A DNA stretch of 64,000 nt from a virus. Lineage: Duplodnaviria; Caudoviricetes. The notes beneath the pieces are model-generated. The model saw nothing but the letters and a program-made list of their open reading frames with translations, searched no databases and had not been told where the DNA came from. Every line of letters starts with the position of its first letter. The stretch's first letter is position 1. Where the stretch lies: the IMG/VR virus record IMGVR_UViG_3300049198_000021, positions 112,505-176,504 of that record; one strand, 5' to 3'. The translations under genes were made by a program, and so were the position numbers. Shown piece after piece: positions 58,698 to 64,000 of the stretch.

Positions 58698-59535
58698 ACG
58701 CCAGCCTGATGGCGATAGTGTGGGGCAACTCACATAAAGGGGGTAAGGTCACATAACCCCGCCCGAAAGGGTCAATTCAGGCAAGTGCAGTCAGGTCCGC
58801 GAGGATCGCTTCTGGTAACAGGAGATAGACTGGAATGGGGCAGGGGCGCGTGAAGCGCACAGGGAGGGGCCGACGGTGCCTCCTAACGCCGGAGTAGAAC
58901 CCGGAGCCTGTATCTAACCCAAACCAACTCGATGATAAAGCACAAGGTCACGGGTTCGAGGCTTAGCGGCTGAGGGCGGTGGTCAATCTTGCAGGGTTCA
59001 CGTCCTGTCTGATGGTCTTGGTAGCTCTTAGCGGAGTGACGGATATGAGGCGACTAGCATTCCTTCGGCGGAAACGTCATGGGAACTAGGTGATAGCTCG
59101 TCTCGGTGGCTTGCACAATCTAGCTCAGTGGTAGAGCATCGGACGCTTAATCCGACGGTCGAAGGTTCAATCCCTTTGGTTGTTATCAAACGCAAAGATT
59201 GTCACGACTGCATGTGAAAGACGCCTAATGCCGTAGGGTTTACCCAATGCGGCCCGACCTGATCTCGCAAGGTGATGGTTGGTTGGTGGAAGAAGTTTCG
59301 TTGGGCCCGCAAGCCCTTAATGGCTGGAGACAGTCAGCGGAATCGAAACTGCCGAATATCATGCAGTGTCGTCGCTAATGCCAGCGACCCCGTGAGAACC
59401 GGGAAAAATAGGCGGCGTTGATCTGGGACCAGACTACCGCAAGGGGTTTGGTGGATAAGCCGGGAAAGTGACTCGCAAGGTCACCATAATCTGTGCGAAC
59501 GACGGATCGTGAAAGGCGTAGTCTCAGCCTGACAT
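58698..59535 (+). ncRNA. GOLLD-like giant structured RNA (about 840 nt) with embedded tRNA
   Basis: ORF-free; many GNRA-capped hairpins (GAAA, GCAA, GTAA, GCGA); internal tRNA; 3' end AAAGGCGTAGTCTCAGCC resembles my recollection of the GOLLD 3' domain; next to phage tRNA cluster; promoter TTGACA at 58663. Boundaries approximate. Confidence 0.65.
59114..59185 (+). tRNA. tRNA-Lys(CTT)-like, embedded in the GOLLD-like RNA
   Basis: TAGCTCAGTGGTAGAGC D arm, TCGGA-CGCTTAA-TCCGA anticodon arm (G33), GGTTCAATCC T arm; no encoded CCA. Confidence 0.7.
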
Positions 59536-60660: not shown

Positions 60661-60689
60661 TTGACATTCGAATCGGATGTCGTTACACT
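60661..60689 (+). promoter_or_regulatory. Sigma70-like promoter of tRNA operon 1
   Basis: TTGACA-N17-TACACT. Confidence 0.85.
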
Positions 60690-60741
60690 TCGAGCTTCAA
60701 GACCGGGACGCCCCGGCTCACAAGGATTTTAGAGTTCCATC

Positions 60742-60834
60742 ATGTTCAACGTAGTCGCCATGAATAACCCAGCAGCACCGGCCATTATGGTCCCGGTCGT
60801 TGTGGCGTGCGTTGATGGAGGAACGAAGGTCTAA
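60742..60834 (+). CDS. Attenuator leader peptide 1 (MFNVVAMNNPAAPAIMVPVVVACVDGGTKV)
   Basis: 30-codon ORF between promoter and terminator; codons 3-22 are all N/V/A/M/P/I, the isotypes of the downstream tRNAs. Confidence 0.8.
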   Translation: MFNVVAMNNPAAPAIMVPVVVACVDGGTKV

Positions 60835-60864
60835 GACCTCCTCAGTATCAAGCAAGTCATTCCG

Positions 60865-60901
60865 ATCGGGGGCCATGGAAACATGGCCCCCGATTTCGTT
60901 T
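60865..60901 (+). terminator. Attenuator terminator 1
   Basis: Perfect 13-bp stem ATCGGGGGCCATG-GAAA-CATGGCCCCCGAT with a TTTCGTTT tract, ending 1 nt before tRNA-Pro. Confidence 0.85.
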
Positions 60902-60977
60902 CTAGGTGTGGGAAAGTTGGTAATCCGCCTGATTTGGGATCAGGAGACCGTAGGTTCGAACCCTACCACTTAGACCA
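60902..60977 (+). tRNA. tRNA-Pro(TGG)
   Basis: Cloverleaf, CCTGA-TTTGGGA-TCAGG, CCA. Confidence 0.92.
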
Positions 60978-60983
60978 GTTAAT

Positions 60984-61062
60984 CAGGCGGTAGGGGAGTC
61001 TGGCCGTCCCTACCTCCCTCGGACGGAGGGGATCGCAGGTTCGAATCCTGCCCGCCTGACCA
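60984..61062 (+). tRNA. tRNA-Pro(CGG)
   Basis: CCTCC-CTCGGAC-GGAGG, GGTTCGAATCC, CCA. Confidence 0.92.
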
Positions 61063-61068
61063 AGTTAT

Positions 61069-61139
61069 AGCAGAGCCTCAGTGGGGGCGGGGCCTCATAA
61101 GCCTTTGACCCGGTGGCGCACATCCACCCTTTGCTACCA
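61069..61139 (+). tRNA. Atypical tRNA-Met(CAT)
   Basis: AGCAGAG/CTTTGCT acceptor, CTCATAA loop, CCA; reduced D arm; T loop CGCACAT. Confidence 0.65.
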
Positions 61140-61277
61140 GATAGGTGACCCAGCCACCTCCTCGTCGATCGCCGAGATCGTCAGGTGCCCCGCACGATCA
61201 GCGGAGCTAGTAAAACCACTGGGACGTTTCGAACCGTCTCGTTGAGACGCGTCTAAGCCGGAGTAATTAACCGGCGT

Positions 61278-61388
61278 ATGCGGGGCGGTTGTAGAACGAG
61301 GAGGACGCCGGTTCGAATCCGGCCACCGGGGCAAGGCTCCGGTGTAGCTCAGGTGGTTAGAGCGCCTTGTTGGTTTCGTCCCCGGCAT
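61278..61388 (+). ncRNA. YrlA-type Y RNA-like circularly permuted tRNA mimic
   Basis: Order is T arm (GCCGG-TTCGAAT-CCGGC), loop-closed acceptor stem (CACCGGGGC-AAG-GCTCCGGTG), D arm (TAGCTCAGGTGGTTAGAGC); anticodon stem AACGAGG/CCTTGTT continues into a terminal stem. Confidence 0.75.
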
Positions 61389-61417
61389 CCGTCAAATCGG
61401 ATGGGACAAGAGTTTGT

Positions 61418-61493
61418 TGGTGATTAGCTCATTCAGGAGAGCGCTGGTGTCACATACCAGAGGCGGCAGGGGCAGAGCCTGCATCACCAACCA
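61418..61493 (+). tRNA. tRNA-Val(CAC)
   Basis: CTGGT-GTCACAT-ACCAG, CCA; T loop GGCAGAG. Confidence 0.8.
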
Positions 61494-61494
61494 T

Positions 61495-61572
61495 CCACGG
61501 ATAGCTCAGTTGGTAGAGCGGCCGACCGATAATCGGCGTCTTGCGGTGGTTCGAGCCCACCTCTGTGGACCA
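61495..61572 (+). tRNA. tRNA-Ile(GAT)
   Basis: GCCGA-CCGATAA-TCGGC (C33), CCA. Confidence 0.85.
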
Positions 61573-61622
61573 GTTTGAATAGGCTGTAACAGCCGAAACT
61601 CAGGGGTTAGTCTCCCTGTAAG

Positions 61623-61711
61623 AGTGAGACCAATAGACCGAACATTCGGCCGGCGGATGAGTTGACGACTCGCACTCCCGGCGCGATCAGTAGGTTGAGG
61701 TCTCGCTACCA
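61623..61711 (+). ncRNA. CCA-ended tRNA-like RNA, unassigned
   Basis: AGTGAGACC/GGTCTCGCT stem followed by ACCA, internal hairpins, no canonical T loop. Confidence 0.4.
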
Positions 61712-61717
61712 GTTTAT

Positions 61718-61792
61718 TTCGTAGTAGCTCAATGGTGGAGCAGCCCGCTGTTAACGGGAAGGTTGTAGGTTCGAGCCCTACCTACGGAGCCA
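61718..61792 (+). tRNA. tRNA-Asn(GTT)
   Basis: CTGTTAA loop, G73, CCA. Confidence 0.92.
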
Positions 61793-61806
61793 GATAGGAG
61801 AAGTGA

Positions 61807-62115
61807 GTGGAACGCTACAACATCAGCTACGACAGCCCCGGACGGAAACTCCGGGAGACTGATCCGGGACCGTCTGACACCACATGGAAAGGTGTCCGGG
61901 AACATTGGTCGAAGTCGTATGATGGGCAGTTCCTCTCGGATTATGAAGAAGGCGTTCAGCTTGCTATCGCTGATCTGGAAGCTGGTGGTCGAGAGAATCG
62001 CGATGCGCTTCTGGCGGTCGAAGCAACCCAACGCAATCACAGTTGGAATGCTCAGAAGGACGGTTACCTCGATACGATCGGCGAGGGAAAATATATCGGT
62101 CAACTTAATTTCTGA
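61807..62115 (+). CDS. Hypothetical protein inside tRNA operon 1
   Basis: AGGAG RBS, GTG start, 102 aa. Confidence 0.6.
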   Translation: MERYNISYDSPGRKLRETDPGPSDTTWKGVREHWSKSYDGQFLSDYEEGVQLAIADLEAGGRENRDALLAVEATQRNHSWNAQKDGYLDTIGEGKYIGQLNF

Positions 62116-62118
62116 TTT

Positions 62119-62190
62119 GATCCTGTAGCTCAATGGTAGAGCCAGCCCCTCATAAGGGCCGGGTTATAGGTTCAAGTCCTATCAGGATTA
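62119..62190 (+). tRNA. tRNA-Met or Ile2 (CAT)
   Basis: CTCATAA loop; C4-G69/C5-G68 is compatible with a TilS substrate; CCA not encoded. Confidence 0.85.
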
Positions 62191-62191
62191 C

Positions 62192-62267
62192 GCTTCGTTA
62201 GCTCAGTTAGGAGAGCGCTGCTGTGACATGGCAGAGGCCGTAGGGGCAGGACCTACACGAAGCACCA
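62192..62267 (+). tRNA. tRNA-Val(GAC)
   Basis: CTGCT-GTGACAT-GGCAG, CCA; T loop GGCAGGA. Confidence 0.8.
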
Positions 62268-62277
62268 TTTACCCAGT

Positions 62278-62354
62278 GGGGACGCATGTTCTAAGGGTAG
62301 CGAGGACCCCTTGCAAGGCTCCTGATGTCGGTTCGATTCCGACCGTCTCCACCA
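62278..62354 (+). tRNA. tRNA-Ala(TGC)
   Basis: GGGGACG/CGTCTCC with G3-U70, A73, loop CTTGCAA, CCA. Confidence 0.85.
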
Positions 62355-62382: not shown

Positions 62383-62411
62383 TTGACATCACAAACCGAA
62401 TCACATATAGT
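62383..62411 (+). promoter_or_regulatory. Sigma70-like promoter of tRNA operon 2
   Basis: TTGACA-N17-TATAGT. Confidence 0.85.
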
Positions 62412-62466
62412 TCGGCTTCAACAACGGGACACGGTGTCCCACAAACAGGATTTTAGAGTGAACGCT

Positions 62467-62529
62467 ATGACCACCCGGTTCGGAAAACGAGATCGCCGAG
62501 AAGGCGATGAACGAGGTTTTACCTCGTAA
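62467..62529 (+). CDS. Attenuator leader peptide 2 (MTTRFGKRDRREGDERGFTS)
   Basis: 20-codon ORF (in-frame GTG at 62458 also possible); codons 4-18 are all R/F/G/K/D/E; same AGGATTTTAGAG upstream element as leader 1. Confidence 0.8.
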   Translation: MTTRFGKRDRREGDERGFTS

Positions 62530-62565
62530 CCCGGTAGTGCGTGTTGCTGCCGGTGTTGTCCTGAC

Positions 62566-62642
62566 GGACCGGTAGCTCAGTAGGTTAGAGCAGGGGATTC
62601 TTAATCCCAAGGTCGAGAGTTCAAATCTCTCCCGGTCATCCA
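62566..62642 (+). tRNA. tRNA-Lys(CTT) inside attenuator 2
   Basis: TTCTTAA loop, GAGAG-TTCAAAT-CTCTC; G1-A72 mismatch and U73; CCA. Confidence 0.8.
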
Positions 62643-62659
62643 AGACAACATCGGTTTTC

Positions 62660-62698
62660 AAAACGCCCTACCGGTCGCCCGGTGGGGCGTTTTCGTTT
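62660..62698 (+). terminator. Attenuator terminator 2
   Basis: AAAACGCCCTACCGG-TCGC-CCGGTGGGGCGTTTT followed by CGTTT. Confidence 0.85.
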
Positions 62699-63785: not shown

Positions 63786-63873
63786 ACTTCCCGAGCGGGA
63801 AGATTTGCTCCCGATCGGGATCAGAACGACCAGAAACTTCCCGATCGGGAAGATATGCTCCCGAGCGGGATCA
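63786..63873. repeat. Four palindromic TCCCGA(G/T)CGGGA boxes in a 50-bp-period direct repeat
   Basis: Boxes start at 63789, 63809, 63839 and 63859. Confidence 0.9.
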
Positions 63874-63903
63874 AAAAAAAAACACCGACATTGAAAATAA
63901 GTG

Positions 63904-63932
63904 TTGACTCCTGTAGGTTCCTTCCATATACT
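63904..63932 (+). promoter_or_regulatory. Sigma70-like promoter of predicted tRNA operon 3
   Basis: TTGACT-N17-TATACT; A-tract and CACCGACATT box upstream. Confidence 0.8.
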
Positions 63933-63939
63933 TCGCAGC

Positions 63940-64000
63940 ATGTTCACACAGACCGCCTTGCAATGCCTTACGGGCACCACGCTATATTGGCATAGCCAGT
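63940..64000 (+). CDS. Predicted leaderless leader peptide 3 (MFTQTALQCLTGTTLYWHSQ..., truncated by window)
   Basis: Only 7 nt separate the -10 box from the ATG; 16 of codons 3-20 are T/Q/L/C/Y/W/H/S. Confidence 0.7.
   Translation, partial: MFTQTALQCLTGTTLYWHSQ

Follow-up and report, generated by a model that had tools for sequence, protein, structure and literature searches.

The stretch of DNA analyzed here (64,000 nucleotides, hereafter the window) is the last 64 kb of the 176,504-bp single-contig genome of a phage of Erythrobacter-type bacteria, deposited as IMG/VR record IMGVR_UViG_3300049198_000021. Towards the end of the window a promoter, a leader with a 30-codon open reading frame (ORF) and an intrinsic terminator follow one another on the + strand, immediately in front of the first block of a tRNA gene array; this leader is referred to below as attenuator 1. 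Our results make it likely that attenuator 1 is a ribosome-mediated leader-peptide transcription attenuator gating that first tRNA block. The parts of the element, their conservation, the mutual exclusivity of its folds, its stall window and the match between its codons and the downstream tRNAs were all obtained by computation.

The closest cultured relatives of this phage are the Erythrobacter phages XM05 (PV416404) and vB_EliS-L02 (OL955261), Sphingobium phage Lacusarx being more distant. Pattern scans and BLAST yielded seven distinct versions of the leader, counting that of the window: those of XM05 and vB_EliS-L02, the IMG/VR variants L004 (a group), L005 (truncated) and L011, and one on the metagenome contig L018. 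The seven sequences are close relatives, and the comparisons of folds use the six that are complete. A degenerate pattern based on the peptide returned only the known loci from viral contigs and one new variant, L018, from metagenomes, and a gap-free pattern, lacking the ATG and the optional codon, gave zero matches in bacterial genomes. The 59 loci found with a looser pattern were discarded, all of them being chance P-A-I-M-V-P matches within proteins. A search by the neighbouring protein led to the same contigs and to no further homologs.

The sigma-70-type promoter (60661-60689, + strand) consists of TTGACA, a 17-nt spacer and TACACT, with 10 of 12 matches to the consensus, and the arrangement TTGACA, 17 nt, TAnnnT is retained in 7/7 homologs despite their differing spacers. 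Between 57000 and 64000 there are only three strong promoter matches, each just upstream of one of three leaders; when our own pattern for a promoter class was applied it found a single copy and no repeated class. Transcription probably starts near 60696, and the RNA would then carry a small hairpin at its 5' end (60701-60719, ACCGGG/CCCGG), the stem of which has been altered on both sides among the homologs (CCGGG/CCCGG, GCGGG/CCCGC, GCGG/CCGC). It is followed by AGGAUUUUAGAG (60723-60734), 7 nt upstream of the AUG, a presumed ribosome-binding region that is conserved in the homologs as AGGAUUU(U/C)AGAG. On the + strand of the whole genome, the exact 12-mer occurs only here and 8 nt before the AUG of the second leader.

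Short and promoter-proximal, with a predicted start site and the conserved 12-mer upstream, the leader ORF (60742-60834, + strand) encodes MFNVVAMNNPAAPAIMVPVVVACVDGGTKV and then stops. Its codons 3-22 read N V V A M N N P A A P A I M V P V V V A, and are thus limited to the six amino acids N, V, A, M, P and I; the Phe at codon 2, outside this set, belongs to an AUGUUC start that is common to leader 3 and to the leaders of Lacusarx. The ORF is open in all seven variants (28-31 codons), its insertions and deletions are in frame, and its C-terminal third is variable. In the alignment of the seven variants, all but one of columns 4-21 hold only these six residues, the exception being the column of an extra Phe in XM05, and the substitutions (V to I, A to V, M to I) stay inside the six-letter set. 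The six amino acids account for 33% of the codons of the phage. In a six-frame scan of the genome, comprising 199,597 stop-free windows of 21 residues, at least 18 residues of the set were found only at the leader ORF, which had the top score (20 of 21 residues from P, V, I, N, M and A), the next best window in the genome reaching 17. It is also the only ORF conserved on either strand across the homologs. A 52-codon ORF on the minus strand (60718-60876) was considered and dismissed, as neither its frame nor its presence is conserved among them.

The same six amino acids, and no others, are served by tRNA block 1 (60902-62354, + strand), which contains Pro(UGG), Pro(CGG), Val(CAC), Ile(GAU), Asn(GUU), Met(CAU), Val(GAC) and Ala(UGC). 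The first gene of the block, tRNA-Pro, begins at 60902, and the promoter of block 2 at 62383. In the interval up to 62383, ARAGORN called Pro(UGG), Pro(CGG), Ile, Asn, Met and Ala; Rfam added a tRNA at 62192-62264, and this gene and the one at 61418-61491 were identified by inspection as tRNA-Val, with anticodons GAC and CAC, respectively. The amino-acid set of the block is the same in the homologs, and tRNA-Pro(UGG) directly follows the leader in every homolog that extends that far. Therefore, the codons of the leader are cognate to what the block supplies.

The 206-nt leader folds with z = -5.0 relative to 200 shuffles, and three structures can be drawn on it. An earlier note, made from the sequence of this DNA, had proposed that a strand within the ORF, ATGGTCCCGGTCG (60787-60799, codons 16-20), can pair either within a leader hairpin or with CGATCGGGGGCCAT (60863-60876), the 5' arm of a terminator. 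All the sequences on which that proposal drew lie where it placed them, including ACCGG (60777-81) and CCGGT (60793-97) of the hairpin, its flanking CGCCATG (60756-62) and TGTGGCG (60801-07), and the outer TCAACGTA (60746-53) and TGCGTTGA (60808-15). The leader hairpin enclosing this strand is present in the minimum-free-energy fold. From folding and from the footprint scan described below we delimit region 1 (60746-60784), the 5' half of this protector; region 2 (60785-60822), which includes 60787-60799 and has two alternative partners, region 1 (up to 60815) and region 3; and region 3 (60842-60877), the 3' strand of the antiterminator, the last 14 nt of which (60864-60877) are the 5' arm of the terminator. 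All three are on the + strand. The proposed exclusivity of the folds holds, since 60785-60815 is common to protector and antiterminator and 60864-60877 to antiterminator and terminator.

The protector pairs 60746-60784 with 60785-60815 through the helices UCAACGUA/UGCGUUGA, CGCC/GGCG, GCAGC/GUUGU and, innermost, ACCGGCCA/UGG..CCGGU, and every homolog has it in its minimum-free-energy fold. It also survives in the RNAalifold consensus, where XM05 accounts for both of the pairs in which the two sides have changed. In that phage the outer helix uses a different downstream partner, and region 1 pairs with its own region 2 at -41.8 kcal/mol, against -27.0 to -33.1 kcal/mol with the region 2 of the others; the reverse cross-pairing comparison does not discriminate. 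The protector overlaps the ORF, and the regulatory codons are so placed that a ribosome stalled on them would free region 2.

The antiterminator had been described as 13 bp with one bulge between 60787-60799 and 60863-60876. This core was recovered by RNAduplex, at -18.8 kcal/mol; its stated extent fell short, as the full pairing of 60785-60822 with 60842-60877 is a rod of about 30 bp (-36.5 kcal/mol) which takes in the whole 5' arm of the terminator. The rod is capped by a small apical hairpin (60827-60839, + strand; AGGUC/GACCU), with the stop codon UAA (60832-60834) in its loop. The homologs all have a hairpin at this place, with the stop codon in or at its loop. Its stem, however, is entirely different from one homolog to another and comes in four versions, AGGUC/GACCU, GAGAC/GUCUC, GGUGGC/GCCAC and AGCU(U)/(A)AGCU, the clearest case of compensatory change in the element. 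The hairpin may serve as the apex of the rod, as a pause site or in the release of the ribosome. The third structure, the intrinsic terminator (60864-60901, + strand), has a 14-bp stem, a GAAA loop and the tail UUUCGUUU; its stem-loop (60864-60895) has an energy of -29.4 kcal/mol and its U-rich tail ends one base before tRNA-Pro. A GC-rich stem with a U-rich tail likewise stands between the leader ORF and the first tRNA in the homologs, where three terminator sequences occur (GGGGGCCAUGG, GGGGCCGUGG and GGGACCCAAGCC), always directly before tRNA-Pro.

Despite these three terminator sequences, all three folds are retained in the six complete homologs, and in each of them the leader pairs best with the terminator arm at one and the same site, UUAUGGUCCCGG. 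The number of shuffled sequences that matched the energy of this duplex was 30 (for the window), 1, 6, 0, 1 and 0 of 500; across homologs, the antiterminator pairing is well above chance. In XM05 both strands of the antiterminator have been altered, CCGUGGAG facing CUUCACGG and CGUG facing CACG. The duplex of the XM05 region 2 with the region 3 of the same phage has -41.2 kcal/mol, and those with the region 3 of other phages have -25.8 to -34.1 kcal/mol, while the region 2 of other phages pairs with the XM05 region 3 at -23 to -28 kcal/mol; regions 2 and 3 of the five phages other than XM05 pair with one another at -33 to -40 kcal/mol. When RNAalifold was given regions 2 and 3 alone, the antiterminator was the consensus fold (19 pairs), and 93.8% of the antiterminator alignment cells were paired, compared with 31-47% when the partners were slid.

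To follow the effect of a translating ribosome, we modelled a 28-nt footprint (from -12 to +15 of the P site) moving along a transcript folded up to the 3' arm of the terminator. As the earlier note had anticipated, in the window a ribosome with its A site on codons 6-11 opens the protector and frees the full antiterminator, 13 of the 14 nucleotides of the terminator arm being held by region 2. With the A site on codons 12-14 the hold on the arm declines, and from codon 15 to codon 23 (I15 to C23) the ribosome masks region 2, so that termination would be favoured. The productive stall window comprises codons 6-12 (60757-60777), GCC ATG AAT AAC CCA GCA GCA, coding for A M N N P A A, and in all six homologs the scan gave this window again, with the first Ala after Pro-10 as its last codon. 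Several of its codons are rare in the phage, namely AAT (0.23), CCA (0.13) and GCA (0.16), the last occurring twice; the Pro(UGG) and Ala(UGC) tRNAs of the block match CCA and GCA exactly by Watson-Crick pairing.

The path of the ribosome-free transcript was traced as energies by transcript length. In it, the protector is the best structure while the 3' end lies between 60804 and 60868, a stretch of 65 nt in which region 3 is not yet available; the antiterminator then has an advantage of no more than 1.6-4 kcal/mol, between about 60872 and 60888, and from 60892 on the protector together with the terminator is best. For the full transcript this combination reaches -83.4 kcal/mol compared with -70.8 kcal/mol for the antiterminator state, as in classical attenuators. 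Translation would end at the stop codon (60832) in the rod's apical loop, 17 nt past region 2; thus a ribosome that completes the ORF leaves region 2 uncovered, unlike the case of trp. Such a ribosome would melt the apex of the rod, and the protector could re-form behind it. Our model, which only masks the footprint, lets the basal helix of the rod form around this ribosome, an arrangement that seems sterically unrealistic.

Together, the shared strands, the folds of six homologs and the footprint scan agree with the reading of attenuator 1 as a 1:2, 2:3, 3:4 attenuator that had been put forward for it. We infer that the ORF is translated, that its ribosomes stall according to tRNA supply, that read-through is regulated accordingly, and that this regulation has a physiological purpose. 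In the mechanism that we propose, the host-type promoter would start a nascent RNA carrying the 30-codon ORF. If codons 6-12 were read quickly, or if no ribosome were present, regions 1 and 2 would form the protector first, leaving the 5' arm of the terminator free; the 14-bp terminator would then fold, and transcription would stop at about 60901, one base before tRNA-Pro. If a cognate charged tRNA were scarce, the ribosome would linger on codons 6-12 and occupy region 1; region 2, then single-stranded, would zip with 60842-60877 into the rod, taking up the 5' arm of the terminator, and RNA polymerase would read into the Pro, Pro, Val, Ile, Asn, Met, Val and Ala tRNA genes. As the leader is written in the six amino acids of the block, the circuit would constitute a negative feedback on the very tRNAs that it controls.

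Several of our results weigh against this interpretation. Considering the window alone, the antiterminator is marginally above chance, since 56 of 1000 and 30 of 500 dinucleotide-shuffled leaders equalled it, owing to the G-rich arm of the terminator. The earlier note had named a lack of covariation among homologs as a result that would refute its proposal; the two strands of XM05 are indeed matched to each other, but column-wise covariation is not significant, with 131 of 500 shuffles reaching the observed score and only one pair changed on both sides. The weakness of the column statistics stems from the few and close sequences, the invariant core and the partial misalignment of XM05 by MAFFT; the duplexes of the individual sequences and their cross-pairing were used in its place. 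In a ribosome-free transcript cut before the 3' arm of the terminator, the antiterminator (-62.1 kcal/mol) is slightly more stable than the protector (-58.8 kcal/mol), and default termination would therefore rest on kinetics, the only ground on which the protector wins. This is plausible in terms of the modelled energies, since the preformed protector would have to unfold within about 20 nt of transcription for a marginal gain. Regarding the codons, region 2 itself contains I15, M16, V17 and P18, and a stall on these would promote termination, so that not all six amino acids would be sensed positively; and codon choice is not fixed among homologs, codon 10 being CCA or CCC and the next Ala codon GCA or GCG. 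There are 14 nt between the Shine-Dalgarno-like AGGA and the AUG, a long distance for a canonical site. Finally, the equivalent first tRNA block of Lacusarx lacks leader 1, even though leaders 2 and 3 are present in that phage; this block is preceded by a promoter and a structured RNA with no ORF rich in the six amino acids.

Three other explanations were weighed against a gate that responds to the tRNAs of its own block. Attenuator 1 could be a true attenuator that senses the general translational state or amino-acid starvation instead of the abundance of six tRNAs, so that any slowing of translation, such as that caused by host shut-off or the stringent response, would open the gate, and the match to the block would be a by-product of the common descent of the leaders. 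It is true that classical attenuators sense charged tRNA, which depends on the amino acid as much as on the tRNA, and that our footprint scan depends only on where the ribosome stands, whichever codon delays it. A sensor of this kind, however, would not need the substitutions among homologs to stay within the set, nor does it explain that each of the three leaders matches the amino acids of its own block and not those of the other two, and we regard it as unlikely. An alternative that dispenses with the ribosome altogether is a constitutive, leaky terminator preceded by a structured leader, in which the folds serve RNA stability or the processing of the tRNA precursor by RNase P or RNase E and the ORF is a side effect of a conserved RNA. 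Not one nucleotide varies in the core CCGGCCAUUAUGGUCCCGG, as would be expected of an RNA element, the variable sites do not strongly favour the third position of codons (6, 8 and 10 sites by position), and the spacing of the Shine-Dalgarno sequence is unusual. Yet the indels of the ORF are all in frame, it remains open in seven variants while its tail diverges, and its composition is the most extreme of the genome for exactly the downstream tRNA set; moreover, sequestering and releasing the arm of the terminator would have no obvious use in a constitutive leader. These observations render this alternative quite improbable.

The leader could also be a gene in its own right, encoding a functional small hydrophobic peptide or giving a terminated transcript of about 200 nt that acts in trans as a small RNA, with the terminator simply ending that gene. 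The peptide is hydrophobic, and a trans-acting attenuator RNA and leader peptide are known from Sinorhizobium, rnTrpL and peTrpL (PMC7968998, PMC7298713). In contrast, the 30-residue peptide has no match in Pfam or PHROG, its C-terminal third is not conserved, and the terminator abuts the first tRNA with no promoter between them, so the tRNAs depend on read-through in any case. We consider this possibility very remote, and a role in trans would add to attenuation, not replace it. None of the three explanations accounts for the set-specific composition of the ORF together with the sharing of strands among the folds.

Attenuator 1 has two sisters in this genome, each likewise composed of a promoter, a short ORF matched to the block that follows and a terminator. 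Leader 2 (attenuator at 62383-62698) encodes MTTRFGKRDRREGDERGFTS and precedes tRNAs for Lys, Lys, Gly, Gly, Asp, Glu, Arg, Glu, Arg, Phe and Arg; leader 3 (63904 onward, continuing at the genome start) encodes MFTQTALQCLTGTTLYWHSQ... and precedes Ser, Leu, Thr, His, Gln, Gln, Thr, Cys and Trp. Here too, each leader is composed of the amino acids of the block that follows it, and the sets differ from that of leader 1, being K, G, D, E, R and F in leader 2 and S, L, T, H, Q, C, W and Y in leader 3. Leader 1 resembles leader 3 in its AUGUUC start and leader 2 in its 5' hairpin and in AGGAUUUUAGAG at a similar distance from the AUG. In fact, leaders 1 (60701-60734) and 2 (62425-62458) share a cassette made up of the 5'-terminal hairpin, the 12-mer, 7-8 nt and the AUG, which suggests a common origin and a special mode of translation start.

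Unannotated homologs of two of these leaders were also found in Lacusarx (L021), a leader-2 homolog ...MFTRFGKRDRREGERGFSL before the Lys block and a leader-3 homolog MFTQTTLLTQCHYWQLLSSSSL before the Ser block, at L021 7321-7425 and 8693-8761. The presence of leaders 2 and 3 in that phage implies that the codon-matched design is older than the split of these phage genera. Considering the three leaders together, we lean, with somewhat more confidence than doubt, towards a closed-loop controller of tRNA supply in three transcription units, every one of them under a multivalent leader peptide composed of its own amino acids, which would be the first case of leader-peptide attenuation of tRNA genes. 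Attenuator 1 would be the module for six amino acids (P, V, I, N, M and A) in this controller, and each block would be made only when ribosomes slow down on its codons. Such slowing might be caused by a host pool poor in those tRNAs, by host shut-off or by defence systems that cleave tRNAs.

Regarding the surroundings of leader 1, it is flanked on one side by a GOLLD RNA and a stretch of structured RNA, and on the other by the long tRNA array (60902 onward). The GOLLD RNA (59047-59530; Rfam RF02032, 156.7 bits) contains a tRNA-Lys(CUU) gene at 59114-59185 inside the match, an arrangement that was also found in the homologs L017 and L018. At the other end of the window, the last ~200 bases (63800-64000) repeat positions 1-200 of the genome with one extra A in a run of A. 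The assembly is circular or terminally redundant; as the ends of the contig overlap, the tRNA array and leader 3 run across the junction.

Within block 1, the tRNA-Val genes have a conserved non-canonical T loop, GGGGCAG(G/C)A, replacing the usual GGUUCGAAU type. Genes of this kind are located at 61418-61491 and 62192-62264 in the window, and at L002 5291-5362, L003 2897-2969 and 3163-3235, L013 14376-14447 and L017 14819-14891. They were missed by ARAGORN, and the tRNA model of Rfam scores them at 43-50 bits, except that at 61418-61491, which it also missed. The gap between tRNA-Pro(CGG) and tRNA-Val(CAC) (61063-61417) holds tRNA-like pieces, with acceptor and T-arm-like sequence at ~61300-61340, and weak Rfam matches to YrlA (61282-61385, 37 bits, sub-threshold) and tmRNA (61222-61328). 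A further gap of 326 nt, between the Asn and Met genes (61793-62118), has overlapping ORFs on both strands (102 codons on the + strand and 134 on the - strand); it may be an inserted gene, such as one for a homing endonuclease, or non-coding.

To our knowledge, the regulation of phage tRNA genes is essentially unknown. Their role is itself debated, the proposals including codon compensation, survival of host tRNA decay and escape from tRNA-cleaving defence (PMC10264068, PMC11464382). A full-text literature search, which did not cover all journals, found nothing on attenuators before tRNA genes, and the genome papers on vB_EliS-L02 and Lacusarx do not mention leaders or attenuation. If our interpretation is correct, the phage would gauge the speed of decoding for each codon family and top up only those tRNAs that are short, and attenuation as it operates in trp, his and ilv would reach beyond amino-acid synthesis to tRNA supply. 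Leader 1 would also provide a natural, six-valent sensor of how fast translation runs, open to reuse as a reporter, and the two cultured phages that carry it, XM05 and vB_EliS-L02, make the idea directly testable.

Among known systems, T-box riboswitches are similar to attenuator 1 in coupling the state of specific tRNAs to the choice between antiterminator and terminator before translation-related genes. T-boxes, however, bind uncharged tRNA directly and need no ORF, whereas leader 1 has a conserved ORF and neither a specifier loop nor a T-box sequence; in Rfam, 60696-60901 matched no family at E <= 1 and none at the gathering score, the leader families and the T-box included. Another parallel is the pheST attenuator of E. 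coli, a leader with Phe codons before the genes of phenylalanyl-tRNA synthetase. Both are leader-peptide attenuators placed over a component of the translation apparatus, but the product is a synthetase protein in pheST, where a single amino acid is sensed, and tRNA in attenuator 1.

The leaders of trp and his are the mechanistic archetypes of leader-peptide attenuation, and the enterobacterial multivalent attenuators are those of ilvGMEDA (ilvL, with Leu, Val and Ile) and thr (thrL, with Thr and Ile). The general principle of leader-peptide attenuation has been described (PMC1183508). Attenuator 1 has in common with ilvGMEDA and thr a promoter-proximal ORF of regulatory codons, a terminator right before the first gene and the 1:2/2:3/3:4 sharing of strands, as well as the predicted freeing of region 2 by a stalled ribosome and the joint sensing of several amino acids. 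It differs from them in that six amino acids are involved and tRNA genes are controlled, instead of biosynthetic enzymes or synthetases, and in that its stop codon lies past region 2, at the apex of a rod of about 30 bp. Furthermore, and unlike those attenuators, it is borne by a phage, as one of three sister leaders whose blocks between them cover nearly all tRNA specificities (19 of the 20 amino acids were called).

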